A DNA stretch of 64,000 nt from a virus: IMG/VR virus record IMGVR_UViG_3300032053_000003, positions 30,392-94,391 of that record. One strand, written 5' to 3'. Position 1 is the first letter of the stretch; each line of letters opens with the position of its first letter. Of the stretch, positions 31,571-54,211 are shown in pieces. Made by a program: the position numbers and the translations under genes. Below the pieces are notes generated by a model. It was not told where the DNA came from. It saw only the letters and a list, made by a program, of their open reading frames with translations, and searched no databases.

Positions 31571-31593
31571 AAATAATTGTATTTGTGGATGAT

Positions 31594-33245: not shown

Positions 33246-33252
33246 GGTGATC

Positions 33253-34255: not shown

Positions 34256-34298
34256 TCCGTAGCACATTCCACAGGTTTTAATACAGGAGAAGACCACA

Positions 34299-35759: not shown

Positions 35760-35771
35760 GGGGGATATGGC

Positions 35772-38700: not shown

Positions 38701-40511
38701 TTGATGGGTCTTCAGGAACCAGTGGTATTGGTCTTGATGGGTCTTCAGGTACGAGTGGTATTGGTCTTGATGGGTCTTCAGGTACGAGTGGTATTGGTCT
38801 TGATGGGTCTTCAGGTACGAGTGGTATTGGTCTTGATGGGTCTTCAGGTACGAGTGGTATTGGTCTTGATGGGTCTTCAGGAACCAGTGGAGCTGATGGA
38901 GCCGATGGGTCTTCAGGAACCAGTGGAGCTGATGGGTCTTCAGGAACCAGTGGATTTGGAACTTCTGGTACGTCAGGAATTTCAGGCTCCAGTGGCACCT
39001 CAGCTACTTCTGGAGGAGGGGCAGGGGATGGTACTATTCTTCTTGGAGAACTTCCTTCAGGACAGATCTATGATGGTTTGATAACCCTTACGGAGACTGA
39101 TCAGGTGAATGAATCTATCAATTGGATTAATGAGATGCTTATTCTGATCTCCCCTGCAAAGCCTGAGATGCTCACAGGGGATGCTCTTGTTCTTACTGGT
39201 ACTGCTAAATATAGTGCTAAGGTGCCTTCTGGTCTTGTTGCAGCTTGGTATCTTGGTGGTGTGTCAGCTGGGGATACCATCACTGATTACGTTACAGACA
39301 ATACATTCCGTCTGACAACACCATCAACTTCAACAGAGTTTTATAACGGGATGTATACAGCTCCTGGTGGGACTTTGAATCTGTATGCAGGTGCCTCTAT
39401 TATCGATACCATCTCTACTGCAACAGCTGGCTCTTCTACGATGTTGACAGTATCTGATGTTGCAACTTACAACTCTATCTGGAGCAAAGCTAATGCTTAT
39501 GCAGATATCACTCAGACTGCTGAGGGCTATCTGTATTACAATTTTAATCACTCACTTGCTGGTGTAACAAACAATCTTGTAGTCAGGTATGATGATGTTC
39601 ATTCCACTCCTTCATTCTCATCAGCTCTTTCCATTGCTGAGAATACACCAGTCTGGAAGTATTTGTCAGGCATTCAGTATTATGGTCAGGGAACTACTCT
39701 AAATATTTCTTATACAGCTGCTGCTGGTATATTTACAAAATGTTATCATCCAACAGCAGTGGCAGTTATTTCCCAGAATGCTGTTGCCTTTGCAACCTTC
39801 AACTACAATCCTGCATCAATACCTGCTTATAACGATAACTGGATAGTGACTGGTTACACAGTGACATTGAGTGTGGCAAATAAGTCTTCTAATTCACCTA
39901 CTATTTCAGTAACCTTACAGAAGCCCACAGGTACCCAGGTTGTCTCTACTGCAAGCCTTGCTAAGAAACTTTGTACTTATGGTAACTATTCCACAACAAC
40001 TATAGAGTATTTCTTTGATGAGGCTTACAGGCTTGAGATAGGTACTGACACTGCTTGGACTTCATCAGCTACTTTGATAGATGACAATGCTCAGGTTCGT
40101 AATGGCTTTTTGCAGTGGCCTGATTCAGGGGATTACCCTACTGGGTTCTCAGGTGATCAGGAGTACCAGAGAAAGTTTACAAAAGTATCAGCATCCACTG
40201 GTACTTTAACCTTCTCAGGTATTACTTATTCTCAGATTTCTGCTTACGGTACTGGGGACCTCAATATTCTCCTTTATCTTGATACTGATGCCATATGGTT
40301 TGATCTTGGTCAGCTTGTTGGTTTTGGTGGGAATGGTTCTACACGAGCTTTGGCTATAGGTGCTCAGGGTTCAGGTTCAGGTGGACTTGTTAATTGGTCA
40401 ATAGGTACTTACAGTACAGGACCTTCTGGTTCAGGAAACTTCGGTAAATATAGGCTTGTCATTATCTTTAGGAACACCAACAGAACAATTACCCAGATAG
40501 TGTCTGCATAA
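35772..40511 (+). CDS. giant fibre/tailspike protein (1579 aa): collagen-like GXY blocks + right-handed beta-helix (pectate-lyase-fold-like) domain + C-terminal domains
   Basis: Multiple GSSGTSG[AI]DG blocks. The segment KPFKTLQAAFDYIGQPT...YNVYVAPGIYTETLTIPARPSINVFVDGVKIVGNV matches the N-terminal cap of pectin-lyase-fold depolymerases. Confidence 0.7.
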   Translation: MSLAFAARLVINNVVDLGSNIYEITGRVYDFSISGYLASDVQLGDVIIDENSETGVVNRWKITNIVLASIRNLVCHVVWDDEGIEDPAGPQICPAAICSTSINVKLAEVPTSTYSLLSETILTRINNINNRVFIDPAITAGTSGSSGTSGEGGGTSGSGSSSGTSGISGADGSSGTSGIGLDGSSGTSGADGSSGTSGADGSSGTSGADGVDGSSGTSGIGLDGTSGTSGDWRNGVYNEIISADSDDCYVTPNDSAIDIGPSLVAMGKGEFSLGAGFRWNGLNIPQGSLITTAYVSLTSADDISNEDCIIQIKGEASDNAITFSTYEDYAARSLTAASVAFIFPPSTGDVVYTTPELKTIIQEIVNRSSWQVGNSIVLFFDDNGSTAYAQRNVCDFGANPTKAAKLYLQWDSSNGPQGLPGVDGTSGSSGSSGTSGADGADGSSGTSGIDGADGSSGTSGIGLDGSSGTSGVDGADGSSGTSGFGSSGTSGIGLDGSSGTSGADGSSGTSGIGLDGSSGTSGADGSSGTSGADGSSGTSGADGSSGTSGSSGTSGVDAQATNSVYVDRARGDTYTPTGSVTKPFKTLQAAFDYIGQPTLPADFNDAAKFGYNVYVAPGIYTETLTIPARPSINVFVDGVKIVGNVTWNFDGTTLTGALTHPELAFIGDNFRNAYNTDGHPLTCTIVGNLTITQIAGSSGSGARGPILMLRGAGVVGNITYNTSGTATGYKSFTQMRDSIYTGTLSTVGAGVSNLLYISNCDTSSSYAVGAISGNVSLYVLRNVRLVGTVVSTSNNGGRWFNVTFGAVAHDFTNCSGTFSCDANSYSSFYANVTNKGAGVFTLIDEAKGVKNDSNVTGVSVKDALNNLLALVGTSGTSGTSGSRGVDGSSGTSGAGLPGTSGTSGADGSSGTSGADGADGSSGTSGIDGADGSSGTSGIGLDGSSGTSGVDGADGADGSSGTSGIGLDGSSGTSGIGLDGSSGTSGIGLDGSSGTSGIGLDGSSGTSGIGLDGSSGTSGIGLDGSSGTSGIGLDGSSGTSGADGADGSSGTSGADGSSGTSGFGTSGTSGISGSSGTSATSGGGAGDGTILLGELPSGQIYDGLITLTETDQVNESINWINEMLILISPAKPEMLTGDALVLTGTAKYSAKVPSGLVAAWYLGGVSAGDTITDYVTDNTFRLTTPSTSTEFYNGMYTAPGGTLNLYAGASIIDTISTATAGSSTMLTVSDVATYNSIWSKANAYADITQTAEGYLYYNFNHSLAGVTNNLVVRYDDVHSTPSFSSALSIAENTPVWKYLSGIQYYGQGTTLNISYTAAAGIFTKCYHPTAVAVISQNAVAFATFNYNPASIPAYNDNWIVTGYTVTLSVANKSSNSPTISVTLQKPTGTQVVSTASLAKKLCTYGNYSTTTIEYFFDEAYRLEIGTDTAWTSSATLIDDNAQVRNGFLQWPDSGDYPTGFSGDQEYQRKFTKVSASTGTLTFSGITYSQISAYGTGDLNILLYLDTDAIWFDLGQLVGFGGNGSTRALAIGAQGSGSGGLVNWSIGTYSTGPSGSGNFGKYRLVIIFRNTNRTITQIVSA
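38658..38888 (+). repeat. perfect 33-bp x 7 coding tandem repeat (GIGLDGSSGTS G units)
   Basis: GGTATTGGTCTTGATGGGTCTTCAGG(A/T)AC(C/G)AGT repeated 7 times head to tail. Confidence 0.9.
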
Positions 40512-40512
40512 T

Positions 40513-40845: not shown

Positions 40846-40886
40846 GGCTATATTTTCTTTTGGTATAGGATCAAAAGTTAAAAAAG

Positions 40887-41273
40887 GTGACTGTGGCTAC
40901 ACTCCTGAAAAAGGTGAGTGGGAAGCAAAAACCATTGAAGATGCCAAACTTATGGCTACAGAGTTTGCAAAAGGAGTGTCGTGATATGAGTAAAGCTATT
41001 GGTCTTCTTATGTTGCTTGAGGATGCATCTATTGTAGATAAGTACAAAGACTCCTTAGCCAAACTTAATTCACCCAAAAGAAAAGAGATTATTAAGGCTG
41101 CTTTTGCCAAGGGTGAGAAGTTTGCTGTGAAGCAGGGCTTGATGAAGATGAACAAAGAAGAGCCACTGGACCCTAAAGAGTATAATGCTCTTCTGGACTA
41201 TATGAGTGACCTTGAAAGAAAACCAACTGCTGTTAAGTCAAAGAGTTTTGCAAGTCGTTTCCTGGCCTTTTAA
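40887..41273 (+). CDS. hypothetical protein
   Basis: 128-aa ORF. Confidence 0.45.
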   Translation: MTVATLLKKVSGKQKPLKMPNLWLQSLQKECRDMSKAIGLLMLLEDASIVDKYKDSLAKLNSPKRKEIIKAAFAKGEKFAVKQGLMKMNKEEPLDPKEYNALLDYMSDLERKPTAVKSKSFASRFLAF

Positions 41274-41293
41274 CTAGATCCTGTGAGGCAATA

Positions 41294-41494
41294 ATGAATC
41301 GTTCAAAAAGACTCTTGGTTCTTCTGCGTGAAGAGAACGAAGATAAAGATGGGTGGGTAGGAGTGGATCTTGATTCAACCTTAGCCTTTTATGATGAGTG
41401 GAAAGGTAATGACTATATAGGGAAGCCAATTCCTGAGATGGTCAAGAAAGTTAAGAGTCTTTTGGATCAGGGTAAGCAAGTTAAGATCATATGA
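41294..41494 (+). CDS. hypothetical protein
   Basis: 66-aa ORF. Confidence 0.4.
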   Translation: MNRSKRLLVLLREENEDKDGWVGVDLDSTLAFYDEWKGNDYIGKPIPEMVKKVKSLLDQGKQVKII

Positions 41495-41682
41495 CTGCAC
41501 GAGTTCATCCTGACAATGAAGATGTAGAAGGTATCAGGGAACTTATTCAGAAATGGTGTGAAGAACATCTTGGTCAGGTTCTCCCTGTTACCCATGAGAA
41601 AGACCACAAAATGATTGAACTTTGGGATGACCGATGCAGACAAGTTATTAAAAATACTGGCAGGTTCATTGATGAGGATTAA
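41491..41682 (+). CDS. hypothetical protein
   Basis: 63-aa ORF. Confidence 0.4.
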   Translation: MTARVHPDNEDVEGIRELIQKWCEEHLGQVLPVTHEKDHKMIELWDDRCRQVIKNTGRFIDED

Positions 41683-41720
41683 TCTCTATAGAATTTACCC
41701 TCATATGGAGGATTTTTTAA

Positions 41721-44700
41721 ATGTGGACTAAGGAAGATCGAAGCTTCAAGACCCTGATTAATCGTAGGACAACTGATTCTACAGGTAAATATTGGTATAA
41801 TGAAGTTTCTGATTCTACGTTAAATGTCCATATCAGTGAGATATGGTCTGACACTATCAATGAATCTCCTGCCCAGGCAGTTATTGATGGTGTTGCAGAG
41901 TTAAGAACTCTTTTCACCTTAACTGAAGATACCACAGTACCTCTTCAGTACTGTTACTACGCATACTCTGGTGATAGGCTTAAAGACTGGATTTCTACAA
42001 AATATGGTAGTGGGTACACTGTTCACCTTTTTGACAATAACAATGTAGAGATAGGTCCTACAAATGCTTGTCAGTGGTTTTTTGACAATCAAACTGGAAT
42101 TTTAACCTTCAATGCTTCTGTTGCTGCTTTTGCCAAGCCTTTTAAGATTACTGGTTATAGGTACATAGGAGCCAAAGGTGTGGGCACCTCAGGTGCTGGC
42201 ACATCTGGTACATCGGGTATCAATGGGTCAAGTGGTACATCTGGTATAGGTTTTTCTGGCACCTCAGGTACATCTGGTGTGGGCACTTCTGGAACTTCAA
42301 GTATTGGTGTCGATGGCTCTTCAGGTACATCAGGTCTTAGTGGCTCAAGTGGTACTTCGGGACCAGGGGGGTCAAGTGGAACCTCAGGTTTCAGTGGTAC
42401 AGCAGGACAGGGATTCAGTTGGGAGAGTCAGTGGACAGCAAGTAAAGTTTACCAAGCTTATGATGTTGTAAAGACTGATTACAATTCTTACGTTTGTCAC
42501 TTGGGTCATACATCAACTTATAATGATCAACCTGGTGTAGGTCCTAATTGGGGTAATTACTGGGATACTTTTACTGAGGGTGGAATAGGATCTTCAGGTA
42601 CATCTGGATCAGGATCTTCAGGAACCAGTGGTTCTGGCTCCAGTGGCTCAAGTGGGTCTTCGGGCACAAGTGGCTCTTCAGGCTCTTCAGGAACCTCAGG
42701 TTCAAGTGGATCTTCAGGGACTGGTTTTTACTGGGATGACATGTGGCAGTATGATCATGCCTATGGAGTAAATGCTGTAGTTGAAAGTCTTAAAAGTTGC
42801 TACATTTGTAAGATATCTCATATCTCAACTTATGAAGATGAGCCAGGTGTTGATGCCTCTGGTCATGACTGGGAAACCTATTGGGATCTTATGGTTCCTG
42901 GTGGTGTTGGGTCTTCAGGTACGAGTGGGTCCAGTGGTTCAAGTGGTTCAAATGGTTCTTCAGGATCAAGTGGGACTTCAGGCTCTAGTGGTAAAGGTTT
43001 CATATGGGGAGGGGAATGGTCTACTTATCGTACTTTTTATACTTATAATGTAGTATCTCATTTGCATCATGGTACTTTTGTTTGTATTCAAGATCATATA
43101 TCTGATCCTATGTATCATGCTTATGAGCCTATGGGTAACGAAGATTGGCAGTCTTACTGGCAACCTTTTGCATTAAGTGGTACATCAGGTTCATCGGGTG
43201 CTAATGGGTCTTCAGGAACCTCAGGCTCAAGTGGAAAAGGATTCACATGGACAGGTGCTTGGATCATAAGTCATGTATATGATGAGACTCAAATGGTGGA
43301 GAATGGTTCAGACAGTTATGTCTGTACTGTATCCCATACTTCAGATGCCCTCAATGAACCTGGTAATGAACTTACAGGTAATGATTGGGAAGATTACTGG
43401 GATCGTTTCCTTCCTGGTGGGAATCCTGGATCTTCTGGCTCTAGTGGCTCAAGTGGTACAAGTGGCTCCAGTGGGTCATCAGGAACCTCAGGCTCCAGTG
43501 GTACAGGTGGATTTAAGTGGGCAGGTGGTTGGTATGAATATCCAAGTCATCTTTATCAGGTTCATGATGTAGTATCTCATAATCCGTGGGGAACTTTCGT
43601 ATGTATTCAGCAGCATCTTTCTGAATATAATCATGAGCCAGAGGTAGATGGTGACTGGCAGTCATACTGGCAGTATTTTGCTCCTGCTGGCACATCGGGT
43701 TCATCAGGTGTTAATGGGTCTTCAGGTACAAGTGGAGTTTCACCTGCATTTACTAGTATTCTCAGTCAGGATCTTGATGCCAATGAATGGAGTATTGTCC
43801 ATCTTAATTCTGTATCATGGAATTCAGAGTACAACTATGGTGATGCTGGAACTTCAGCTACTATTAATTGGACAGAAGGTCAGATCCAGAAGGTAATTCT
43901 TACTAAGCCTAGTATCATAAATTTTAGTAATCCTGTAGGTGTTGGGTATTATCTGATCAGGTTGGTTACTGGTGGCTATAATGCAGTATTTCCAAGTGTG
44001 ATTTGGGCAGGTGGTTTAACTCCTACTTTTGGTGCTGAGGCTGTAAACCTAGTTTACATTTATTTTAATGGTGTTACCTATTATGGTCATGTTTGGGGTC
44101 AGGGAGGCACTTCAGGCACGAGTGGGTCTTGTACGTTTACCAGTACTCTTGAGACTGATCTTGATGCAAATAATCACAATATTATTCATCTTAACTCAGT
44201 TTGTTATAATGCAGAGTATAATTATGGGGACTCAGGCTCGATAGCTACTATAGATTGGACAGAAGGTCAGTTACAGAAGATAGATCTCACTGATGATTGT
44301 GAGATTTCTCTCTCTAATCCTAAGGGTGTTGGATATTATCTGATCAGGTTGGTTACAGGACTTGGTTCAGGTTATGGTTACAATGCAACATTCCCTGATG
44401 TAGTTTGGACGGGTCCTACTCCTGTTTTTGGTGATGATCTTGAGAATGTAATCTATTTTTACTTCAACGGTATTAATTATTATGGTCATGTTTGGGGTAC
44501 AGGTGGGACTGGTGGAACCAGTGGTTCTGGCACCAGTGGGACTTCAGGTGTATCTGGGTCTTCAGGGACTAGTGGGGAGGCTGGAACCTCTGGAGTAGCT
44601 GGCACCAGTGGGACTTCTGGTTCCAATGGTTCTTCAGGGACTTCAGGCTTGATTTCAACTTATCAGTACTCAAATACATATTCTGCTTCTACATCCTGGG

Positions 44701-44870
44701 AAGTTGCTCATAATCTTGCAGCTGATCTTGTGATGGTACAGTGTTTCAGTGATGACTCTCCTAAGAAAGTAATAATGCCCTATGATATTACATTGGATAC
44801 TACCAATCAGTGTACTGTTAATTGGGGTGATTCATCTGTTGCTGGTAGTGTTTGTGTTTTGAAGTTTTAG
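41721..44870 (+). CDS. fibre protein with six CBM5/12-like (chitin-binding type 3-like) carbohydrate-binding repeats separated by GSSGTSG linkers, and duplicated C-terminal domains
   Basis: Six copies of W...Y.aYDVV......YVC...HTS....PG....W..YW (e.g. QWTASKVYQAYDVVKTDYNSYVCHLGHTSTYNDQPGVGPNWGNYWDTF). Two approximately 120-aa C-terminal repeats (DLDANEWSIVHLNSV... / DLDANNHNIIHLNSV...). Confidence 0.7.
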   Translation: MWTKEDRSFKTLINRRTTDSTGKYWYNEVSDSTLNVHISEIWSDTINESPAQAVIDGVAELRTLFTLTEDTTVPLQYCYYAYSGDRLKDWISTKYGSGYTVHLFDNNNVEIGPTNACQWFFDNQTGILTFNASVAAFAKPFKITGYRYIGAKGVGTSGAGTSGTSGINGSSGTSGIGFSGTSGTSGVGTSGTSSIGVDGSSGTSGLSGSSGTSGPGGSSGTSGFSGTAGQGFSWESQWTASKVYQAYDVVKTDYNSYVCHLGHTSTYNDQPGVGPNWGNYWDTFTEGGIGSSGTSGSGSSGTSGSGSSGSSGSSGTSGSSGSSGTSGSSGSSGTGFYWDDMWQYDHAYGVNAVVESLKSCYICKISHISTYEDEPGVDASGHDWETYWDLMVPGGVGSSGTSGSSGSSGSNGSSGSSGTSGSSGKGFIWGGEWSTYRTFYTYNVVSHLHHGTFVCIQDHISDPMYHAYEPMGNEDWQSYWQPFALSGTSGSSGANGSSGTSGSSGKGFTWTGAWIISHVYDETQMVENGSDSYVCTVSHTSDALNEPGNELTGNDWEDYWDRFLPGGNPGSSGSSGSSGTSGSSGSSGTSGSSGTGGFKWAGGWYEYPSHLYQVHDVVSHNPWGTFVCIQQHLSEYNHEPEVDGDWQSYWQYFAPAGTSGSSGVNGSSGTSGVSPAFTSILSQDLDANEWSIVHLNSVSWNSEYNYGDAGTSATINWTEGQIQKVILTKPSIINFSNPVGVGYYLIRLVTGGYNAVFPSVIWAGGLTPTFGAEAVNLVYIYFNGVTYYGHVWGQGGTSGTSGSCTFTSTLETDLDANNHNIIHLNSVCYNAEYNYGDSGSIATIDWTEGQLQKIDLTDDCEISLSNPKGVGYYLIRLVTGLGSGYGYNATFPDVVWTGPTPVFGDDLENVIYFYFNGINYYGHVWGTGGTGGTSGSGTSGTSGVSGSSGTSGEAGTSGVAGTSGTSGSNGSSGTSGLISTYQYSNTYSASTSWEVAHNLAADLVMVQCFSDDSPKKVIMPYDITLDTTNQCTVNWGDSSVAGSVCVLKF

Positions 44871-44955
44871 AATTACCTTACTCTTGGATGGTCTAGGGGT
44901 AAGTCACTTAATACCAAACGCATAATTGGTATCTATCAAATAACGAGGTGAAATA

Positions 44956-46413
44956 ATGAGGTACTATGGTGTGGAGATGAAGGGTATCCTTCTAATCCAA
45001 AAGGTAGCTGAAAAGCCAGTGTGGGGAACTTCAGATGAGGGTCGTTTCATATATGATCTGGATACCAAGAAGACCTACTATGGTGATAATACCGATTGGA
45101 AAGAGTGGGGTACTTCGGGTACCTCTGGCTCCAGTGGGTCTTCAGGTACTTCTGGCTCAAGTGGTACCTCTGGCTCCAGTGGGTCTGATGGCTCCAGTGG
45201 TACAAGTGGCTCTAGTGGGTCTTCAGGAACCAGTGGCTCCAGTGGGTCTGATGGCTCATCGGGTACCAGTGGCTCTAGTGGATCTTCAGGTACAAGTGGC
45301 TCAAGTGGGTCTTCAGGTACCAGTGGCTCCAGTGGGTCTGATGGCTCATCGGGTACCAGTGGCTCTAGTGGGTCTTCAGGTACAAGTGGCTCAAGTGGGT
45401 CTTCAGGTACCAGTGGCTCCAGTGGGTCTGATGGCTCATCGGGTACCAGTGGCTCTAGTGGGTCTTCAGGTACAAGTGGCTCAAGTGGGTCTGATGGCTC
45501 ATCGGGTACCAGTGGGTCTTCAGGTACAAGTGGCTCTAGTGGTTCTTCAGGAACCAGTGGGTCTTCAGGTACAAGTGGCTCCAGTGGGTCTTCAGGTACA
45601 AGTGGCTCCAGTGGGTCTTCAGGTACAAGTGGCTCCAGTGGGTCTGATGGCTCATCGGGTACCAGTGGCTCCAGTGGTTCATCGGGTACAAGTGGTTCTA
45701 GTGGGTCTTCAGGTACGAGTGGGTCTGATGGCTCCAGTGGTACAAGTGGCTCAAGTGGGTCTTCAGGAACCAGTGGCTCAAGTGGGTCTGATGGCTCCAG
45801 TGGTACTTCTGGCTCAAGTGGGTCTGATGGCTCAAGTGGTACTTCTGGCTCAAGTGGGTCTTCAGGTACCAGTGGTTCTTCAGGCTCCAGTGGTACAAGT
45901 GGCTCCAGTGGGTCTGATGGTTCTTCAGGTACCAGTGGCTCCAGTGGTACAAGTGGCTCTAGTGGGTCTTCAGGAACCAGTGGCTCCAGTGGGTCTGATG
46001 GCTCATCGGGTACCAGTGGCTCTAGTGGGTCTTCAGGTACAAGTGGCTCAAGTGGGTCTTCAGGAACCAGTGGCTCCAGTGGGTCTGATGGCTCATCGGG
46101 TACCAGTGGCTCTAGTGGGTCTTCAGGTACAAGTGGCTCAAGTGGGTCTAGTGGGTCTTCAGGAACCAGTGGCTCCAGTGGTACTTCTCCTATTGAGACC
46201 TATTCCAATACTTATGCTGCTTCCACTTCATGGACAGTAGAACATGCTCTTAACAGTAGTACTCTTCTGGTGCAGTGTTGGGATGCCTCAACTTCAGGGG
46301 TACAGATGATCATTCCTAACTCAATTGTAATCGATACTGTTAACCAGATCATTGTTAACTGGGGTGATTCGGTGGTGGATGGAAGAGTTTGTGTTATTAA
46401 GCTTCTTCCGTAG
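44956..46413 (+). CDS. collagen-like GXY repeat fibre with conserved N-terminal anchor domain (MRYYGVEMKGILL...)
   Basis: about 360 uninterrupted residues of GSSGTSGSSGSDG; N-terminus paralogous to those of 46503 and 51553 genes; C-terminus similar to that of 41721 gene (NWGDSVVDGRVCVIK vs NWGDSSVAGSVCVLK). Confidence 0.7.
   Translation: MRYYGVEMKGILLIQKVAEKPVWGTSDEGRFIYDLDTKKTYYGDNTDWKEWGTSGTSGSSGSSGTSGSSGTSGSSGSDGSSGTSGSSGSSGTSGSSGSDGSSGTSGSSGSSGTSGSSGSSGTSGSSGSDGSSGTSGSSGSSGTSGSSGSSGTSGSSGSDGSSGTSGSSGSSGTSGSSGSDGSSGTSGSSGTSGSSGSSGTSGSSGTSGSSGSSGTSGSSGSSGTSGSSGSDGSSGTSGSSGSSGTSGSSGSSGTSGSDGSSGTSGSSGSSGTSGSSGSDGSSGTSGSSGSDGSSGTSGSSGSSGTSGSSGSSGTSGSSGSDGSSGTSGSSGTSGSSGSSGTSGSSGSDGSSGTSGSSGSSGTSGSSGSSGTSGSSGSDGSSGTSGSSGSSGTSGSSGSSGSSGTSGSSGTSPIETYSNTYAASTSWTVEHALNSSTLLVQCWDASTSGVQMIIPNSIVIDTVNQIIVNWGDSVVDGRVCVIKLLP
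45115..46190 (+). repeat. about 1.1-kb low-complexity coding tandem array (9/18/90-bp periodicities, GSSGTSGSSGSDG)
   Basis: e.g. 90-bp units at 45241-45330, 45331-45420, 45421-45510 are near-identical. Confidence 0.85.
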
Positions 46414-46434
46414 GTAGTCAACATTTGAAGTACA

Positions 46435-46482
46435 GTGGTGGAGTCTTCGGACTCCACCACATATTCGTCTTTATTCATTCTT
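46435..46482 (+). terminator. rho-independent terminator
   Basis: 11-bp perfect stem GTGGTGGAGTC-TTCG-GACTCCACCAC followed by T-rich tract ATATTCGTCTTTATTCATTCTT. Confidence 0.6.
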
Positions 46483-46502
46483 AAACTTCAGAGGAGTACA
46501 TA

Positions 46503-49500
46503 ATGAAGCATTATGGTATTGACTCTCAATATCTGCTTACAGCTGAAAGTTCTCAGTCTTTGCCTACCTGGGATACCAAATACAAGAGGTCTTTCATCTA
46601 TTCTGAAGGAGATAGTAGAATGTATTATGGTACGAATACTGGGTGGGCTGCATGGGGAACCTCAGGAACCAGTGGTATTAAAGGAGAAGTAGGAACTTCA
46701 GGCACCAGTGGGTTAGCTGGGTCCAGTGGGACTTCAGGGTCAAAAGGAGAAGTAGGAACCTCAGGCACCAGTGGGTTAGCAGGATCTTCAGGTACTTCTC
46801 CTACAAGTGTTGGAGCATGGGCTACTACAACTGCTCTCAATGCCAGCAGGACTCAGTTTGGTGGGTGTGGTTCAATAGCTTCTGCTCTTGCTTTTGGAGG
46901 TCACACAGGTGGTGGTGCAGCCTTAAATACTACTGAAATCTGGACAGGATCTTCCTGGATGACAGCTTCAGCTACTCTGACTCAAAGTAAAACTTATTTG
47001 TTAGGTATAGGTGATTCTTCTTCAGCCTTGTGTGTGGGTGGTAGTACTTCAGTTACTGAAAAGTGGTCTGGTACAGGCTGGTCAACCACAGGTAGCTTCC
47101 CTATGGTTATTCATGGTCTTTCTGGTGGTGGTTCAACAACTGCAGCTATTGCCTTTGGTGGTTATACAAGCAATTATTCAAACCAGACAAGTACCTGGAA
47201 TGGTGTAGCTTGGTCTGCTGCTAATACTCTAAATCAGGTAAGAGGCTATGGTTCTGGTTGTGGTAATACAACAACTGCCTTGGCAATTGGTGGATTCTCA
47301 GGAGCAAATCTTAATACTGTTGAGAAGTGGGGTAACTCTTCTTGGAGTACCACTACAGCTATACCTACGGCTACCTGGGGTGCAGGTGCTGCTGGGGGTG
47401 CTAGTTTAGCCATTATCTTTGGTGGAAATACAGGTTCAGGTGCTGCTGCTTGCATTAGTTCTTCTTATGCATGGAATGGATCAGCATGGTCTATTACAAC
47501 TTCTTTGAATGCTGTAGTGGTTAATAATGGTGGAGTTGGTGATAAATCCAATGCCCTTTCTTTTGGTGGGGACACTCAGGGAAGTGTGGCAAGAATAGGT
47601 ACTGAGAAATGGGTGGATGGTACCTCAATTACCTCAGGATCATCTGGCTCCAGTGGGACTTCTAGCTCCAGTGGTACTTCAGGGAGTAGTGGATCTTCTG
47701 GTAGTGGTTCTTCAGGTACCAGTGGCTCAAGTGGCTTAAGTGGTTCTTCGGGGACTAGTGGCTCCAGTGGTTCTTCAGGAACCAGTGGCTCAAAAGGTGA
47801 TGCAGGTTCTAGTGGAACCAGTGGGTCTAGTGGAACCAGTGGCTCTACTGGTGCTGATGGTGCTTTTTCAGGCTTAATTTTATATTTTGATCATGTGGAT
47901 TCTGATCTTACCTTGCCTTCAATTACATTAAGTACATTGGCTTTTGTAAATTCTAATCCTGATACATTAGTCCGTTCTGATGTTGGTAGTTTTATAACTG
48001 ATGGGTATATACCAGGACAAAAACTTAAAATAACAGGTGGGGTTAATGATGGATTGGAATTTCCAATTTTATCAGTAGTTGCTAAAACGATTACTTTTAT
48101 TTATTCGGCTGCAGTGACTGCCCAGGCAGAAGGTATATCTATAACTTTGTCAGTTCAAAGAGAGACTCTTACAAGGGTACCCGTATCAGGAACACAGGTG
48201 ATTGAAAGTGTTGAAGTAAAGAGTACATCTCCAGAAGATGTTGTGGGTGCAACATTAGATTCTTATGCAACTGTGCTGACCGTACCGGGATCAACACGAG
48301 TTCCTTCTGGTGTTTGGACCTTCAGATTTTGGGCATATGCAAGTAATTTGGGATCTGAATCTTATATACATTTTGTTATTGCTAAAAAATCAACGTCTGG
48401 AATTGTTACTGATCTATTTAGCACAATTGAGGGTAAATCAGTAATGGTGTCTCTTGCAGGGGATTCAAACGATCAAAAGAGGTATATTCAGACACATGTA
48501 GAGCCTACAGAGTATTCACTGGCAACCACAGATAGGATAATAGTAAGGGTTGTTGCTACTGCAAAAACTACGACAAGAACTGTATCGTTTATCTATCAAG
48601 GTACAGCAATGGCATCATTTATTGAGACACCGTTTAGTGTATCAGCTCCATCTGGAACATCAGGTACCAGTGGTTCTTCAGGCTCCAGTGGTTCTTCAGG
48701 CTCCAGTGGTACTTCTGGCTCAAGTGGTACCTCTGGCTCCAGTGGGTCTGATGGCTCCAGTGGTACAAGTGGCTCTAGTGGGTCTTCAGGAACCAGTGGG
48801 TCTTCAGGAACCAGTGGCTCCAGTGGGTCTGATGGCTCATCAGGTACAAGTGGCTCAAGTGGGTCTTCAGGAACCAGTGGGTCTTCAGGAACCAGTGGGT
48901 CTTCAGGAACCAGTGGCTCCAGTGGTTCTGGTACTGATGTTACTAAAACTTTCTCTCAAGCTGTTAATACTACTTATATTGCAAGTGTTAGTACAGGTAT
49001 AGTTGTAACAGATAATGATAATATTGATTTTGGAACTGGAGATTTTACTTTAGTCTGGAGAGGGAGTTTACCTGATTGGACTCCAAGTATTTATGGGCAG
49101 ATTATACGACATTATGACAGTAATTTGGGTGTTGGATGGGTATTTAGTACTGATACTGGAAGTACTGGTAAGTTAAGACTTAGAAGAAGTACTAATGTTG
49201 CAACTTCTACAGTCTTTTCTAATATTGTTGATGGATCAGTAGCAGAAGTAGCTGTTGTGGTAGATTCTACTAATGCTACCTTTTATGTTAACGGAGTACA
49301 ATTAGGAAATGCTGTTGCTTGTGGAGCAGTAGATGTTTCTAATACTGGGATACTTGAAATACTTGGAGATCAGAATGGTGCACAACATGCAGGAATCTGT
49401 TTATTTGCTGCTACTTACAATCGTGCTTTAACATCTACAGAAGTATTAGATTTATATAAAAATGGTATCAATTATGCTGATAAATGGGGAAGTCAGACAG

Positions 49501-50879
49501 CACAGTTATCTGGTACTATGTCAGGAGGAGCGTATGATACAATAGACGAGACGACAACTACAGGGTTTCATGCAGTTAATTTAACTTCACACGGAGGATA
49601 TGCAGGAACTACTGATGCGATGTCTGTTGTTGCGGGGAAGAGGTATCGAATATCTTATATAATAGCTCTATCCAGTGGAACATTACCCCAATCTGTTCAA
49701 TTCAGTGAGTCCTTGGGAGGAGGAAGCGTTATTGGTTTTACTAATGTCCCCGTAAATGGTGTTAATTCCACTGAATTTACAGCCTTGTTAACAGGCACTG
49801 GGGTGTTTTGGTGGTATAATAATTCTGGGGCTGTGGACTATACTGTGTCTAATTTTCTCTTTGTCGAAGTTGGGGCAACTCTTGCCCTCGAATCAGAAGG
49901 AATTCATACTGATAAATGGTATGATTCTTCAATAAATGCTTTAGATGCAACTTATCCAACAACAGGAAGTAGCCTAGTCAGGAATCCTTTTTTACCTATG
50001 ATTGTGGGAGGAGATAAAACAACATCTGATCTTACATTAAAAACTACTATTGGAGTAGGTACAACTGGTGCAGATATGCACTTTTTAGTGGGTAATAATG
50101 GTGCAACTGAGGCTATGACTATTTTAAATAATGGTAATATTGGTATGTTTACAACTGATATTGAAGCCTGGTCTGCTAGTTATTGGGCTATTCAATTTCC
50201 AGTTGGGGCATTACAGATAGCCAAAACAAGTCCTGTTATAGGTGTTACAGATAATTCATATTATACTGCCACTGGGTATAAACGTAGAATAGAAGCAGCA
50301 GCAGCACAATATATAATAAATAGTGGAACACATAGCTTTCGAGTAGTAGCATCAAATACTATTGATAGTGTAATAACTTGGATATCTGCAATGAGGGTTG
50401 ATAATACAGGCAACGTAGGCATTGGGAATTTTGAATTGGGAATAGAACCTGCAACTAAGCTTGATGTAGCAGGTTCAATGCAGGTTTCATCTGCTGTGGC
50501 TCTCAGTTTAGGTGGTTATGTAAGAACATTTGCAGAGGCTACAGGCACTCCTTCTGGTTCAACTACATATTTTGATATAGCTGTTAACGTACCCACTGGA
50601 TGTAAATTATTAGGTTGTCAATTAAGAGTGGATGCTACTCTTGCAACTGGGGAAACCTGGGGAGCTGCCTATATTACTGGCTCTACAACTGTGATAGCAG
50701 CAGCAGGTCAGGCTGTTGCAGCAAATACTAAAGTAAATAAAATGCATCTTGATGAGATAACCTCAGCAACTACTAAAGTAAGGATTACCAGAGATTCAGG
50801 TAATTTTTCAAATGGATATGGGATTATACGAGCAATAGTTTATTATGAAACATTTACGGCAATGGGCAACGCCAATTGA
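46503..50879 (+). CDS. giant fibre protein (1458 aa): N-terminal anchor domain + Kelch-type beta-propeller + GXY linkers + LamG/concanavalin-like lectin domain + C-terminal domains
   Basis: Six repeats of about 50 aa with GG...W...W (ALAFGGHTGGGAALNTTEIWTGSSW...). LamG-like segment DFGTGDFTLVWRGSL...ATFYVNGVQLG...; two GSSGTSG blocks. Confidence 0.7.
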   Translation: MKHYGIDSQYLLTAESSQSLPTWDTKYKRSFIYSEGDSRMYYGTNTGWAAWGTSGTSGIKGEVGTSGTSGLAGSSGTSGSKGEVGTSGTSGLAGSSGTSPTSVGAWATTTALNASRTQFGGCGSIASALAFGGHTGGGAALNTTEIWTGSSWMTASATLTQSKTYLLGIGDSSSALCVGGSTSVTEKWSGTGWSTTGSFPMVIHGLSGGGSTTAAIAFGGYTSNYSNQTSTWNGVAWSAANTLNQVRGYGSGCGNTTTALAIGGFSGANLNTVEKWGNSSWSTTTAIPTATWGAGAAGGASLAIIFGGNTGSGAAACISSSYAWNGSAWSITTSLNAVVVNNGGVGDKSNALSFGGDTQGSVARIGTEKWVDGTSITSGSSGSSGTSSSSGTSGSSGSSGSGSSGTSGSSGLSGSSGTSGSSGSSGTSGSKGDAGSSGTSGSSGTSGSTGADGAFSGLILYFDHVDSDLTLPSITLSTLAFVNSNPDTLVRSDVGSFITDGYIPGQKLKITGGVNDGLEFPILSVVAKTITFIYSAAVTAQAEGISITLSVQRETLTRVPVSGTQVIESVEVKSTSPEDVVGATLDSYATVLTVPGSTRVPSGVWTFRFWAYASNLGSESYIHFVIAKKSTSGIVTDLFSTIEGKSVMVSLAGDSNDQKRYIQTHVEPTEYSLATTDRIIVRVVATAKTTTRTVSFIYQGTAMASFIETPFSVSAPSGTSGTSGSSGSSGSSGSSGTSGSSGTSGSSGSDGSSGTSGSSGSSGTSGSSGTSGSSGSDGSSGTSGSSGSSGTSGSSGTSGSSGTSGSSGSGTDVTKTFSQAVNTTYIASVSTGIVVTDNDNIDFGTGDFTLVWRGSLPDWTPSIYGQIIRHYDSNLGVGWVFSTDTGSTGKLRLRRSTNVATSTVFSNIVDGSVAEVAVVVDSTNATFYVNGVQLGNAVACGAVDVSNTGILEILGDQNGAQHAGICLFAATYNRALTSTEVLDLYKNGINYADKWGSQTAQLSGTMSGGAYDTIDETTTTGFHAVNLTSHGGYAGTTDAMSVVAGKRYRISYIIALSSGTLPQSVQFSESLGGGSVIGFTNVPVNGVNSTEFTALLTGTGVFWWYNNSGAVDYTVSNFLFVEVGATLALESEGIHTDKWYDSSINALDATYPTTGSSLVRNPFLPMIVGGDKTTSDLTLKTTIGVGTTGADMHFLVGNNGATEAMTILNNGNIGMFTTDIEAWSASYWAIQFPVGALQIAKTSPVIGVTDNSYYTATGYKRRIEAAAAQYIINSGTHSFRVVASNTIDSVITWISAMRVDNTGNVGIGNFELGIEPATKLDVAGSMQVSSAVALSLGGYVRTFAEATGTPSGSTTYFDIAVNVPTGCKLLGCQLRVDATLATGETWGAAYITGSTTVIAAAGQAVAANTKVNKMHLDEITSATTKVRITRDSGNFSNGYGIIRAIVYYETFTAMGNAN

Positions 50880-50911
50880 TCTGAATGTAATCTGTAATTT
50901 CTGAGGTATCT

Positions 50912-51535
50912 ATGAACCTTTTTGCACCCAAACCCAAAAGTTTGATTCTTGATCCTTATTCTGGGACACCAGTGGAACTTCAAAATTTCCACATTGAGCC
51001 TTGTGACCTCTTTTTTACCCATGGTGATAAACTTTTTAGTAAGATTATTAGGCTTGGTGAAAAACATCTAGGTGATTGGATCTCTGTTATAAATCATACA
51101 GGGATAGTAGTTGAGCAAGGAACCATAGGGTCTGCTGATGTGATTGAAGCATTGGCTACAGTAAAGAAGCATACTTTATGGGAACAGTATCATGGTCAAT
51201 CAGATCAGGTAGCCGTATTTAGGCCCCTTGGCCTTACTGATGAGCAAAAGAAAATCATTGTTGATAAGGCTATTGATTATGAGGGTAGAACATATGGGTA
51301 TGCAAAGATAGCCACTAATGCTTTAGATTTCTTTACTGGTGGTCATTATATCTTCAGAAGACTAACAAATAGTGATCAGTATCCTATTTGTAGTTGGGTA
51401 GTAGCCCACTCATATTCCAAGGTGGGTCTGACATTCGGTTGTGATCCAGGACAGGCAAATCCAGATGATATATGGGATTACTGCTTGGGTCATCCAGATA
51501 AATATCAACTTATTTTCAGCCTACAAAAAGTATAA
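50912..51535 (+). CDS. putative cell-wall hydrolase, permuted NlpC/P60 (YiiX/DUF830-like) papain-fold peptidase
   Basis: H..G (NHTGIVV) precedes the Cys motif (YPICSWVV), the order typical of permuted NlpC/P60; lies between fibre genes like a tail-associated lysin. Confidence 0.45.
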   Translation: MNLFAPKPKSLILDPYSGTPVELQNFHIEPCDLFFTHGDKLFSKIIRLGEKHLGDWISVINHTGIVVEQGTIGSADVIEALATVKKHTLWEQYHGQSDQVAVFRPLGLTDEQKKIIVDKAIDYEGRTYGYAKIATNALDFFTGGHYIFRRLTNSDQYPICSWVVAHSYSKVGLTFGCDPGQANPDDIWDYCLGHPDKYQLIFSLQKV

Positions 51536-51552
51536 ACAGGAGGTAAGACCAA

Positions 51553-52382
51553 TGAGGCATTATGGTATTGATGATCAATATTTACTGCAAGCGGAGACAT
51601 GTGACCCTCTTCCTTCTTGGGAAGCAAAGTACACCAGGAGCTTCATTTATGACCTTGATACTAAGACAATGTACTATGCTACGGATACAAAGTGGGTAGC
51701 TGTCAGTGCTAACGTACTTGCTGGCTATATTCATCCTCAGGCATCAGCATCAGCAACTTGGAGTGTTGTTCATGATCTGGGTGTCCAGGATGTAAGTGTC
51801 ACCGTCTATGGTGAGGACAACAAGGTCATGATGCCTATCGACATTGAGACAATCAGTGTCAATGCTCTCACAATTACCTTTGGTGAGGCTGTGGCAGGTA
51901 AGGCTGTCATCGTTACAGGTAACCCTGGCACAGTGACCTACAGTCAGCAGAAGGTTACACTTGCCAAAGGGACCTCTCTTGCTGATGGTGATTGGAAGGG
52001 TCTGGCTATTACAGGTGCAGTAGGTGGTTCAATAACCAAGGGAGACCTCTGCTACTGCAAACTTAATTTGGGTGCTTGGAAGTACTATCGTTATGATGCT
52101 GATGCTACTGATAAGCTAATTCTCCCCTCAGCCTTAGCTCTTGATTCTTACATATCAGGGGATGGTAGCTTCTTAATCGATGGTGAGATGAGGAATGATG
52201 CTTGGACAGGGCTTGCTGGGACTGCTGATGCATCAACTACAGTCTATGCAAGTACGGCTACAGGTAACCTTACCATGACTGCCCCAGCTGTCTCAGGTAA
52301 CGAAGTTGTTGTTGTAGGTGTACTCATTGCTGCTTACACCCTTCAGCTAAAGATCGGGTATGCTTGGCTTGAGGTGAAGTAA
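51553..52382 (+). CDS. short fibre protein with conserved N-terminal anchor domain (MRHYGIDDQYLLQAETCDPLPSWEAKYTRSFIY...)
   Basis: GGAGG SD before ATG 51553; N-terminus paralogous to 44956 and 46503 genes. ORF-track start 51441 would overlap the upstream gene. Confidence 0.6.
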
Positions 52383-52440: not shown

Positions 52441-52546
52441 CTAAACTTAGAGGTTGAAAAACTTGATATCATTGCTTTAGGGTATTAACATTATGGGGCA
52501 AGAGTGTAGAGAAGAGTGTGATATTCCTATAGATAAGGGGGGTAGT

Positions 52547-54211
52547 ATGCCTGTAATCAGCAAATATGGATCAGATGAGCCTCAGAAGATCCAGGAGTTC
52601 CTAGAAGTATCTAAGCCTTTTGATGTGTCAGAAGTAATTCAAGGGACCTCTCTTTTAAAGTTGGAGGATATAGATTTTCTTAATGAGCATGCTAGTCAAT
52701 TTGAGCAAAGATTTAATGCTAGATCTATATTTAGGTCAAAATTTGAAATGGAAGCTTCTGTTCTTAATGATGATGTTCATCCTACTCCTGATAGCAAATA
52801 TTTCCAGGCAATTGGGGAGCAGAATGTCCACCTTACAGAGTTGATATCTCTTATTTATAATGTAAAAAAAGGTGGTAAGGATATCGAACTGAAAGGGATA
52901 GATCTTGATGAGGTCAACCTTCAGCTCAAACGTCTGCATAGAGAGAATGTTGAGCTGTGTGAGAGGATATCAAAACCTGATGCCGTAGCTTCCAGAGAGG
53001 ATGCTGACAGGTTAGATGAATTGCCTATTCTTATTAATAGGAAAGAAAAAGAGATCGAAAAACTTGAGTTGGAACTTGATGAGCTGAAGTTCAATATCAA
53101 GCAGTCCAATAAGGTAGCTCAGGAGCGTATCCGTGAGGTTAAACAGTGGGAAGCTATTATTGCCAAGCTTGTTCCTCAACTTGAGTTTGGGATCGAAGAC
53201 TTTGAGCTGCATCACCCAAAACGATATGTTCAGAGATATGGTCGTAGGGCTATGCATCTCGATATTCTTAATCCTGAAGATAAGGAGAATGTAGTCAGTC
53301 ATTTCTTATCTTTTGCAGGTCATACAGATAACAAAGAGGAAGCCAAGAAGTTTCTTAAGGATATGGTGACTGTAGGTGGCATGCCAATGAATCATGGATT
53401 GGTTAAGGCTCTTCAGGCATCTATAGGACAACCCAACTTGCAACAGTTGTCAGCTCCTGATGTTAAGAGGCTAGATCAGGATTACCCCAGTAAGGAAATA
53501 GCTAACCTGGATGATCCTGTTGTGAAGAGCTTCTTTATCAGGAAGACTCTCAAGATCTTGGTGTGTTCTCCTCATCGTCTTCCTACAGATAAGATTATTA
53601 TGAATATGTGGGCACTCCAGACACCTGCTGCTTTTGATTGTCAGCTGTGGGAACCTCATGGGATGTCAGTTGCTGAGGCTCGTACCTCATCTATTAAGAA
53701 AGCTATTGCAGAAGGGTACCAGTTCATTCAGTGGATTGATGATGATATGATTCTACCCAGGAATGCCTTAGTGCAGCTTATCAGTCACGTTGCTGACATC
53801 GTAGGTGGTTTCTACTATCGTAAGTATGAGCCTATTGAGTCCTGTGGTATGCATGAGTATGTTATCAACAATGAGATGGTGCCAAGACCTATTAAGGATT
53901 TTAAGATAGGTGAGGTTATTCATCATACTTTGGTTCTTCCCTCTGGTTGTACTCTTCTTAATCTTGATATCTTTAAGAATGAGAAGATGGAGGAGCCTTG
54001 GTATAGGACTGTTACAATAACAGGTGCACCAGCAATTACAGAGGACACCTATTTTTGCCAAAAGGCACGGTTGGCTGGGTATGATGTGCTTACCGATACA
54101 GGTGTTCAATGTATCCATGTTGATCTGGCAAGTAATAGGATCTTCGGGCATCCTGAAGTAGTTGATATGAGTAAGAATATTATTCTTAATCCGTATAATT
54201 ATTGCTTATAA
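52547..54211 (+). CDS. coiled-coil + GT-A fold glycosyltransferase (GT2-like); alt start 52493
   Basis: GGGGGG SD before ATG 52547; C-terminal half has FIQWIDDDMILP (DxD) and GGFYYRKYE typical of GT-A; central ELELDELKFNIKQ coiled coil. Confidence 0.55.
   Translation: MPVISKYGSDEPQKIQEFLEVSKPFDVSEVIQGTSLLKLEDIDFLNEHASQFEQRFNARSIFRSKFEMEASVLNDDVHPTPDSKYFQAIGEQNVHLTELISLIYNVKKGGKDIELKGIDLDEVNLQLKRLHRENVELCERISKPDAVASREDADRLDELPILINRKEKEIEKLELELDELKFNIKQSNKVAQERIREVKQWEAIIAKLVPQLEFGIEDFELHHPKRYVQRYGRRAMHLDILNPEDKENVVSHFLSFAGHTDNKEEAKKFLKDMVTVGGMPMNHGLVKALQASIGQPNLQQLSAPDVKRLDQDYPSKEIANLDDPVVKSFFIRKTLKILVCSPHRLPTDKIIMNMWALQTPAAFDCQLWEPHGMSVAEARTSSIKKAIAEGYQFIQWIDDDMILPRNALVQLISHVADIVGGFYYRKYEPIESCGMHEYVINNEMVPRPIKDFKIGEVIHHTLVLPSGCTLLNLDIFKNEKMEEPWYRTVTITGAPAITEDTYFCQKARLAGYDVLTDTGVQCIHVDLASNRIFGHPEVVDMSKNIILNPYNYCL

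Follow-up and report, generated by a model that had tools for sequence, protein, structure and literature searches.

Which structures are encoded by a run of long collagen-like genes in an uncultivated virus, and what might a glycosyltransferase of an adhesin-modifying family be doing beside them? These questions are raised by a 64,000-nucleotide (nt) stretch of the IMG/VR virus record IMGVR_UViG_3300032053_000003 (positions 30,392 to 94,391), which we refer to as the window and whose own numbering is used throughout. Six co-oriented genes on the plus strand, named here by their start positions (g34299, g35772, g41721, g44956, g46503, and g51552), span positions 34299-52382 of the window. An earlier reading made from the letters alone, the original prediction, had described modular receptor-binding fibres in this region; the Ser/Thr make-up of their stalks and the adjacent TibC-type O-glycosyltransferase had escaped it. 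Most of its domain assignments proved right, one repeat count had to be lowered, and one attribution lacks support. We consider it likely that the cluster comprises the fibre (adhesin) genes of an uncultivated phage, which would produce long collagen-like fibres with N-terminal docking domains and glycan-binding modules. The six genes are the following (aa, amino acids; CBM, carbohydrate-binding module; Ig, immunoglobulin):

34299..35759, plus strand: g34299, 486 aa, unique N- and C-terminal domains around 63 Gly-X-Y triplets; Pfam Collagen E 2.3e-12
35772..40511, plus strand: g35772, 1579 aa, N-terminal domain B, four globular segments, 124 triplets; Pfam Collagen E 2.7e-30
41721..44870, plus strand: g41721, 1049 aa, N-terminal domain A, five CBM5/12-like repeats, two domains of about 120 aa, Ig-like C-terminus; 88 triplets
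44956..46413, plus strand: g44956, 485 aa, anchor, stalk and Ig-like tip; Pfam Collagen; 120 triplets
46503..50879, plus strand: g46503, 1458 aa, anchor, Kelch domain, 260-aa domain, LamG domain, distal region of about 480 aa; 68 triplets in three tracts
51552..52382, plus strand: g51552, short fibre, 276 aa, anchor, Ig-like domain, C-terminal beta domain; without a Gly-X-Y tract

Gly-X-Y stalks and the modules they separate

The Pfam Collagen model (PF01391) scored above its threshold of 27.2 bits in five of the six genes (44-180 bits), g41721, g44956, and g46503 included, and the Gly-X-Y stalks proposed to carry the modules are thus real. When only runs of at least four triplets are counted, the five genes hold 463 triplets, whose composition is one of two unusual features of this locus. 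The X position is occupied by Ser in 205 triplets and by Thr in 161 (366/463 together), the Y position by Ser in 343/463 and by Asp in 52, whereas Pro was found at only four of the 926 X and Y positions, and charged residues are few. The stabilising make-up of characterised bacterial collagens, with Pro/hydroxyproline or charged pairs, was not observed in these stalks. The stalk of g44956 runs without interruption from the anchor to the tip, the two ends being delimited with local hidden Markov models (HMMs):

44956-45111, plus strand: 52-aa anchor of g44956 (local HMM)
45109-46188, plus strand: stalk of g44956, 120 uninterrupted triplets, about 100 nm long if triple-helical
46189-46410, plus strand: Ig-like tip of g44956, 75 residues (local HMM)

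Gly/Ser-rich sequences are typically flexible, and the Gly-[Ser/Thr]-Ser tracts could instead be flexible, possibly glycosylated mucin-like linkers whose periodicity arose from 9-bp tandem duplication. The Ser/Thr-dominated composition with four Pro residues fits this proposal, as do register breaks such as GIGLDG in several tracts and the tandem repeats of the stalk DNA. These coding repeats are imperfect, and their periods range from 18 to 99 nt in multiples of 9, with the exception of 24-nt and 33-nt units. However, the Gly, Ser, and Thr codons vary inside these repeats (Gly is written with four different codons, Ser with both TCN and AGT), which indicates that the Gly-X-Y periodicity is held at the protein level; Gly stands at every third position over 120 triplets despite this codon divergence. 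The Pfam Collagen scores of up to 180 bits also speak against simple linkers, trimeric fibres are the rule in phages, and the same architecture is found in the EPclA fibres of an enterohaemorrhagic Escherichia coli (EHEC) prophage, for which triple helices were demonstrated (PMC3368898). Taking both sides together, we regard the linker explanation as unlikely.

In the fibre reading that we favour, the products of the five genes would be long, probably homotrimeric fibres in which the Gly-X-Y tracts act as trimerising spacers between globular "beads". These beads would be the five CBM5/12 units, the two beta domains of about 120 aa, the Kelch and LamG domains, the Ig-like tips and further domains, while the sixth fibre would be stalkless.

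In g41721, Gly-X-Y tracts separate all the domains, which are arranged as follows:

41721..42185, plus strand: N-terminal domain A, aa 1-155; phrog_9417, E 2.7e-8
42414..43688, plus strand: five CBM5/12-like repeats, each flanked by Gly-X-Y linkers (profile search and alignments), at 42414-42578, 42726-42899, 42999-43175, 43242-43415, and 43512-43688
43743-44108 and 44133-44507, plus strand: two copies of a beta-rich domain of about 120 aa, 63% identical to each other
44655..44867, plus strand: C-terminal Ig-like domain (local HMM; BLASTP E 5e-10; phrog_21918)

Six CBM5/12-like repeats had been claimed for this gene. Their kinship holds, but a profile search run with its filters off found exactly five (aa 232-286, 336-393, 427-484, 508-565, and 598-655), and likewise five in the orthologue carried by a related contig. 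The kinship could not be read directly from Pfam CBM_5_12 (PF02839), since the two best repeats reached 18.1 and 17.1 bits (E 0.003 and 0.006) against a threshold of 26.2 and the full-length protein gave no match. When the repeat profile was compared with the PDB, the best match was the chitin-binding domain of ChiA1 (1ED7, E 0.0013), which aligned over the full domain length with its Trp, Tyr, Cys, His, Pro, and terminal Trp residues matched. An exhaustive profile search with the repeats yielded 2799 cluster representatives at E<=1e-3, many of them with 5-29 copies. All of the top 10 relatives exceeded the Pfam CBM_5_12 threshold (32-152 bits), and six of these 10 also matched Pfam Collagen (E<=0.01), with scores over its threshold in four cases. 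Through these intermediates, and at the level of sequence, the homology of the repeats to CBM5/12 is established. Three of the five repeats also matched phrog_9851 ("tail fiber protein", E 1.3e-5). No matches were obtained when the CBM repeat region was searched against phages with tblastn, and a word-indexed homologue search with the trimmed repeat alignment gave no candidates; the relatives described above came from the exhaustive profile search. Chitin-like or peptidoglycan receptors, which had been suggested for these repeats, would be a guess drawn by analogy from the family name.

The two domains of about 120 aa and the Ig-like C-terminus of g41721 had been overlooked. The former showed a weak Pfam match to STIV_turret_2nd (galactose-binding-like, E 0.0035), and the latter is also present at the C-terminus of g44956 and at aa 53-130 of g51552. 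Homologues of domain A were found in phiCbK-like and Brevundimonas jumbo phages.

Two further modules had been assigned to g46503, and both were confirmed:

46815..47660, plus strand: six-bladed Kelch-type beta-propeller between two Gly-X-Y tracts (AlphaFold2, Foldseek, phmmer)
49062..49445, plus strand: LamG/concanavalin A-like domain, aa 854-981; Pfam Laminin_G_3 (PF13385)

The propeller consists of six blades of about 47 residues each (aa 105-372). The AlphaFold2 model of aa 97-386, built from a 48-sequence alignment, had 25 strands, a predicted local distance difference test score (pLDDT) of 94.1 and a predicted template-modelling score of 0.90. Its superposition by Foldseek supported the proposed fold, as the best PDB matches were six-bladed Kelch domains (E about 1e-17, template-modelling score (TM) 0.72-0.76), and NS1-BP, PfK13, KLHL12, and Keap1 were matched with E values of 1e-17 to 1e-15 and TM scores of 0.70-0.79. 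Kelch proteins were also retrieved from the PDB by phmmer (E 4e-5). The Pfam Kelch repeat models gave no matches to the propeller at E<=5, and PF01344 was present in one of the 48 homologues of the region. The LamG domain matched Laminin_G_3 above its gathering threshold (32.0 versus 27.6 bits, E 1.7e-7, profile positions 28-150 of 151). For the 260-aa middle domain and the distal region of about 480 aa, Pfam, PHROG, and PDB sequence searches returned no family; the PDB searches were empty for aa 452-720 (middle domain) and for aa 808-1458 (LamG and distal region). PHROG scans of the isolated domains that lacked an assignment were mostly empty.

A beta-helix depolymerase had been proposed within g35772, in the following segment:

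37434..38396, plus strand: KPFKTLQAAFDYIG...VYVAPGIYTETLTI segment of g35772, 321 residues, proposed beta-helix

The motif itself is present, but neither a beta-helix nor an enzyme was verified there. The 321-residue segment had no sequence match in Pfam or the PDB, and a single-protein scan of IMG/VR with it returned nothing. Its residues 9-73 alone resembled Listeria phage tail proteins labelled "pectin lyase fold" (tblastn E 2e-3), a weak similarity of the N-cap, and phrog_4577 "tail protein" (E 1e-4). The C-terminal segment of g35772 found no match among PDB sequences. Searches brought up no homologue whose active site is known, and the label of depolymerase is unsupported for g35772.

The shared anchor, module exchange and the site on the virion

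Local HMMs placed the N-terminal module of about 50 residues (52 aa) in exactly three genes of the window, g44956, g46503, and g51552, and in two genes per related locus; pairwise BLASTP comparisons of these anchors gave 38% identity (E 1e-14) and 58% identity (E 1e-22). The module had been described as common to three Gly-X-Y genes and one short fibre. The sharing stands, with two Gly-X-Y genes (g44956 and g46503) in place of three, and the short fibre does lack a Gly-X-Y tract, although its ATG lies at 51552 and not at 51553. The genes g41721, g35772, and g34299 begin with three other N-terminal domains that are unrelated to the anchor. The N-terminal domain would fix each fibre to the virion, and the four classes of N-terminus suggest four docking sites. 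A single-protein scan of IMG/VR with the anchor returned nothing.

We compared the fibre genes by BLASTP with three related contigs (L006, L007, and L008) and observed that whole modules have been exchanged between related phages. Domain A of g41721 is 80% identical to the N-terminus of L006_3525-4550, a protein with a g34299-type C-terminus (40% identical to that of g34299). The body of g41721 is 55-68% identical to L006_4562-7231, which has a g35772-type N-terminus (55% identical to residues 1-123 of g35772). The anchor of g46503 is 80% identical to that of L007_8354, a 449-residue fibre with an unrelated distal domain; the N-terminal module, taken in the original prediction for an attachment part, accordingly behaves as a conserved end. 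The g44956 orthologue, L006_7308-8495, keeps both ends with a shorter stalk; the short fibre of L006 has a Gly-X-Y tract inserted at a domain junction; and in L007 a loop of the domain of about 120 aa that g41721 has duplicated accommodates a Kelch propeller. A conserved N-terminus with exchangeable distal domains, as seen in these mosaics, is the usual pattern of receptor-binding tail fibres as judged from sequence, with which head fibres are still compatible. Recombination in the repetitive stalk DNA may be the shuffling mechanism, in accordance with the proposal made for the collagen-like fibres of EHEC prophages (PMC3368898).

The related contigs hold further variants. The nested Kelch genes lie at 661-1824, 1832-2986, and 2996-4957 of L007, one of them with two propellers, which makes them examples of domain-in-domain insertion within the fibre family; the domain of about 120 aa stands alone at 4615-4947 of L008. 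At L007 8354-9703, L007 10043-11854, and L008 7424-9481, the same kind of anchor and stalk bears different distal modules, and one C-terminal domain among the distal modules of the relatives appears C1q/TNF-like by eye. The relatives also share a protein of 600-685 aa, whose L008 orthologue has a Ser/Thr-rich Gly-X-Y tract.

The short fibre gave information about where the fibres might sit. Its AlphaFold2 model has three domains (pLDDT 77) and found 106 matches in BFVD at E<=1e-3, of which those with names are tail-fibre-like, Mtd_N-containing, S74-chaperone-containing or collagen proteins; the names of these fold matches are the only tie between the anchor and Mtd_N. In L013, a viral contig of 56.6 kilobases (kb), the C-terminal domain of g51552 recurs at the end of a protein, with a double-LamG protein and then an endolysin encoded after it, an arrangement that, from its sequence, is a tail-fibre context within a tail-to-lysis module. 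An alternative is that the products are head, neck or whisker-type appendages that keep the virion attached to biofilm matrix or to particles rich in polysaccharide, the places in which hosts live, instead of receptor-binding fibres of the baseplate that recognise the entry receptor. Against the PDB, the top matches of the g51552 model were head-fibre and decoration proteins, with the base of the phi29 head fibre gp8.5 at the highest Foldseek probability (0.97, TM 0.54), followed by the YSD1 capsid decoration protein and phage 21 SHP; these matches were weak and not significant (E 0.1-1), in contrast to the tail-fibre-type names in BFVD. Hypothetical proteins of phage NCTB and of jumbo phages of Erwinia and Dickeya also contain the Ig-like domain. 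In addition, CBM5/12 and Ig-like modules are of a kind suited to sticking to substrates other than the host. With the tail-fibre context in L013 and the constant N-termini also in the balance, we find head or whisker-type appendages improbable.

Besides these head-fibre matches, several observations weigh against baseplate-attached trimeric fibres. No baseplate, sheath or capsid genes were recognisable in the window, no baseplate gene being found near the fibre cluster; the upstream genes at 31654-34255 had no family match; and the anchor profile had no sequence match in the PDB or Pfam. Kelch and CBM5/12 domains, which would here be arranged within a trimeric fibre, are normally monomeric. 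In addition, the composition of the stalks differs from that of characterised bacterial and phage collagens, and a stable triple helix is not assured. If the fibres are nevertheless assembled as we propose, the distal and in-line modules would bind surface glycans multivalently at low affinity, and a g41721 trimer would present 15 CBM5/12 units.

A TibC/Aah-type enzyme beside the fibre genes

Downstream of the short fibre lies a group of genes for putative glycan-modifying enzymes, followed by another fibre-type gene:

52493..54211, plus strand: g52493, 572-aa protein with a GT-A-like C-terminal domain; phrog_1574 and phrog_12406 "glycosyltransferase"
54253..58713, plus strand: g54253, multidomain glycosyltransferase, 1486 aa (GT4 with an intein, middle region, TibC/Aah-type domain)
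55051-56196, plus strand: intein with a LAGLIDADG homing-endonuclease domain inside g54253, interrupting a conserved GT4 motif
57619-58665, plus strand: TibC/Aah-type O-heptosyltransferase domain of g54253; NCBIfam TIGR04414
59071..59793, plus strand: FkbM-family methyltransferase; Pfam E 6.6e-11; TIGR01444, 72 bits
59803..60561, plus strand: Gp80-like protein (podophage GP4 fibre I family); Pfam PF23140, E 2.4e-25

Since the Gp80-like gene is located downstream, the glycosyltransferase genes are flanked by fibre-type genes, and g54253 itself sits 3.4 kb downstream of the Gly-X-Y fibre genes. Its C-terminal domain matched TIGR04414, the equivalog model of the bacterial autotransporter heptosyltransferases (BAHT; TibC/Aah), with 246.7 bits (cutoff 200, E 3.4e-73) over profile positions 16-373 of 374, and it aligned to residues 30-386 of TibC (4rb4) with an E value of 2e-47. 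In this alignment, Asp1208 of g54253 is opposite the catalytic Asp110 of TibC, and the motifs VCHGC, WRWCPR, and DFECS are opposite the iron-finger residues Cys339, Cys342, Cys358, and Cys370. Six phage homologues show no variation at the catalytic Asp and the four iron-finger Cys, the residues that define the BAHT family (PMC4358343). TibC and Aah add heptose to adhesin serines, and their known substrates are autotransporter beta-helices, not collagen (PMC4358343). No autotransporter adhesin partner was found among the neighbouring genes scanned; the neighbours are the Ser/Thr-rich collagen-like fibre genes. The intein junctions read GWNLPL/CFPVG and SVHN/CEFMACG (slashes mark the junctions), and at this point the L007 and L008 orthologues read GWNLPLHEFMACG, without the 382-residue insert. 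The neighbouring g52493, which has an 84% identical orthologue in L007, is a possible partner in this glycosylation module.

The pairing of such an enzyme with collagen-like genes recurs in other viruses. A BAHT-like domain was found in only four of 50,697 deposited phage records. In the 190-kb genome of the Microcystis phage Mel-JY01 (PP395634.1), the only two open reading frames (ORFs) with at least eight Gly-X-Y triplets flank the gene with the BAHT-like domain, which forms the C-terminus of a 1226-aa protein labelled "methyltransferase FkbM" in GenBank. The larger of these ORFs (L014 2-3049, plus strand), of the GSSGTSG type with anchor-like and Ig-like elements, has 202 triplets and runs across the ends of the linear record, encoding 1788 aa when joined; in the GenBank record it is masked by minus-strand "hypothetical proteins" (1-651 and 739-2298). 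In LR756501, a 735-kb phage, a similar fibre ORF lies about 4 kb from the enzyme gene, and in LR756504 no Gly-X-Y gene was found within 20 kb of it. As a separate observation, Mel-JY01 has an annotated prolyl 4-hydroxylase (PP395634.1 146571-147170) and a GPPGPPGPP stretch in its collagen-like fibre, and this phage may modify its fibre in more than one way.

A single-protein scan of IMG/VR with the BAHT domain returned nothing; relatives of this domain were detected on at least 480 contigs of the database. From these loci, we took the best 80, which were reduced to 61 by dereplication, and searched for a Gly-X-Y ORF within 10 kb of the enzyme gene. Such an ORF was present at 40 of the 80 loci and at 29 of the 61 distinct ones, and every paired locus had at least one ORF with tracts of at least 60% Ser/Thr and at most 3% Pro. 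Among the 29 distinct pairs, the distance was within 3 kb in 20 and within 300 bp in nine, and both genes were on the same strand in 24. These pairing counts are lower bounds, because 24 of the 61 distinct loci had less than 3 kb of flanking sequence on at least one side. A small control, comprising 296 kb of loci chosen for neither feature, contained four Gly-X-Y ORFs, none of them Ser/Thr-rich. These results support the idea that the enzyme gene and genes for Ser/Thr-only collagen-like fibres are probably genomically coupled.

From this coupling, we infer that the phage may O-glycosylate its own fibres, a tentative proposal to which we give close to an even chance. The TibC/Aah-type domain of g54253 would add the first sugar (heptose or a related one) to stalk serines; after that, further growth and methylation of the glycan would fall to the fused GT4, the FkbM methyltransferase, and the GT-A-like g52493. 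With such a coat, a triple helix without stabilising residues of its own would gain stability or stiffness, or the fibres would be shielded. It is also possible, though we find it somewhat doubtful, that the glycosyltransferase genes are unrelated to the fibres and that they act on other targets, namely the DNA of the phage or the lipopolysaccharide or adhesins of its host. DNA and the O-antigen are the substrates for which glycosyltransferases of phages are chiefly known (PMC12619734), and the restriction of the known TibC/Aah substrates to autotransporter beta-helices, the unpaired enzyme gene of LR756504, and the half of the IMG/VR loci in which the fetched sequence held no Gly-X-Y ORF agree with such targets. 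However, BAHT is a family of protein O-glycosyltransferases whose catalytic Asp and iron-finger Cys are conserved in g54253, Ser/Thr-rich Gly-X-Y ORFs accompanied the enzyme at 29 of 61 distinct viral loci and at none in the control, and the Mel-JY01 genome has its only two Gly-X-Y ORFs on either side of the BAHT-like gene.

Genome context and known systems

The ORFs at 41721-44870, 44956-46413, and 46503-50879 are intact and on the plus strand. The same 1458-aa product of g46503 was called in an independent ENA assembly, which makes a misassembly of this gene unlikely. The window has a G+C content of 40% and a strand switch near 31 kb, with small minus-strand genes to its left and long plus-strand genes to its right. 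A product identical to that of the short fibre is encoded on metagenomic contigs of 230,776 and 237,444 bp, and we read the window as part of an uncultivated phage with contigs of up to 230-237 kb. The window has no close DNA relative among deposited phages, megablast of positions 30000-42000 against GenBank phages having given no matches. The presence of collagen-like genes, glycosyltransferases, and a PARP gene prompted us to consider a giant eukaryotic virus. This was rejected because the window encodes RtcB, a Mom-like protein, a sigma-70 region 4 protein, and a Thoeris inhibitor resembling Tad6, and because the fibre genes have PHROG tail-fibre matches and relatives among jumbo phages.

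The positions of these and other neighbouring genes are as follows:

3138-4073, minus strand: Mom-like protein, E 2.8e-11
10300-11391, minus strand: RtcB RNA ligase homologue, E 1.5e-53
17466-17540, minus strand: tRNA-Glu(TTC)
29157-30353, minus strand: protein with PARP catalytic and WGR domains, E 1.9e-23
30406-31194, minus strand: sigma-70 region 4 protein, adjoining the PARP/WGR gene at the strand switch
40513-40845, plus strand: 110-aa protein between two fibre genes; Pfam Tad6, E 1.8e-12, 48 bits (threshold 27)
41294-41494 and 41491-41682, plus strand: two short ORFs with an ATGA overlap
50912..51535, plus strand: permuted-papain gene (Peptidase_C92/YiiX-like); Pfam E 1e-5, just under threshold

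Tad6 is a Type I Thoeris inhibitor. The two short ORFs, which occupy the apparent 450-bp gap 5' of g41721, jointly resemble one HAD-family phosphatase (VGVDLDSTLA ... KII/TARV, the slash marking the split); a gene broken in two, a frameshift or an error in the sequence could each account for this. The permuted-papain gene is the immediate 5' neighbour of g51552, and it keeps this place beside the short fibre in L006, L007, and L008 (68-79% identity). Rfam identified one tRNA and nothing else, and scans for promoters and terminators revealed no enrichment over shuffled sequences.

Two weak clues concern the host. The C-terminal domain of g51552 is 54% identical to a signal-peptide protein from a Syntrophales metagenome-assembled genome (OY764159.1), located at L005 10001-11092 (L005/L010) in a region with Amidase_2 and PBECR3 genes that is possibly a prophage, and one Kelch homologue comes from a Syntrophorhabdaceae metagenome-assembled genome.

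Collagen-coding DNA is also mis-annotated by gene callers. Shadow ORFs cover it in the window at 45035-46240 (plus strand) and 38255-38998 (minus strand), and a minus-strand gene was called by the Joint Genome Institute inside L006 7308-8495, the g44956 orthologue. Systematic errors of this kind conceal such fibre genes in public records.

Collagen-like phage fibres and CBMs on phage adhesins were already known, and to these the cluster adds a well-resolved example of module shuffling. What is new is the link between Ser/Thr-only, nearly Pro-less collagen-like stalks and a viral enzyme of an adhesin-hyperglycosylating family. If fibre glycosylation is true, it would account for a stable fibre made from an atypical Gly-X-Y sequence, widen the range of virion glycosylation beyond mycobacteriophages to many phages from the environment, among them a Microcystis phage that is in culture, and provide a second, non-autotransporter class of substrates for the BAHT family. 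It would then represent an undescribed and widespread viral system of protein glycosylation.

Among known systems, BclA of the Bacillus anthracis exosporium is similar in being a Thr-rich, O-glycosylated Gly-X-Y filament with a globular distal domain, but its repeats are mostly GPT and thus Pro-rich, it has a single C1q-like tip, it is non-viral, and different glycosyltransferases are involved. The EHEC prophage proteins EPclA and EPclB, which are collagen-like side tail fibre proteins, share with the fibres described here an N-terminal attachment domain, a Gly-X-Y stalk, a distal globular domain, and modular reassortment; their layout is PfN-PCoil-Col-PfC, and EPclA was reported to be non-glycosylated (PMC3368898). 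In contrast, the stalks of the present cluster are nearly pure Gly-Ser/Thr-Ser, have no coiled coil, PfN, PfC or Pf2, and are interrupted by in-line modules (CBM5/12 five times, Kelch, and LamG).

On the side of the enzyme, the TibC/TibA and Aah/AIDA-I pairs (PMC4358343) resemble g54253 in that the enzyme gene adjoins genes for Ser-rich surface adhesins. Unlike TibC and Aah, g54253 is encoded by a virus and fused to a GT4 with an intein and to a long middle region, and the candidate substrates beside it are collagen-like fibres instead of autotransporter beta-helices. Phage glycosyltransferases that modify the phage's own structural proteins, as proposed here, have been described in mycobacteriophages (Freeman et al. 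2023, cited in PMC12619734); the targets named in that account are the C-termini of capsid and tail-tube subunits, the enzymes belong to other families, and no collagen-like substrate figures in it. Finally, the Klebsiella phage phiKp24 (PMC9700779) is, like the phage studied here, a large phage with many fibre and spike genes that have their own N-terminal docking parts. Its fibres are mainly beta-helical depolymerase spikes in a branched assembly, whereas those encoded here would be binding modules strung along collagen-like tracts, among which no enzyme was recognised.

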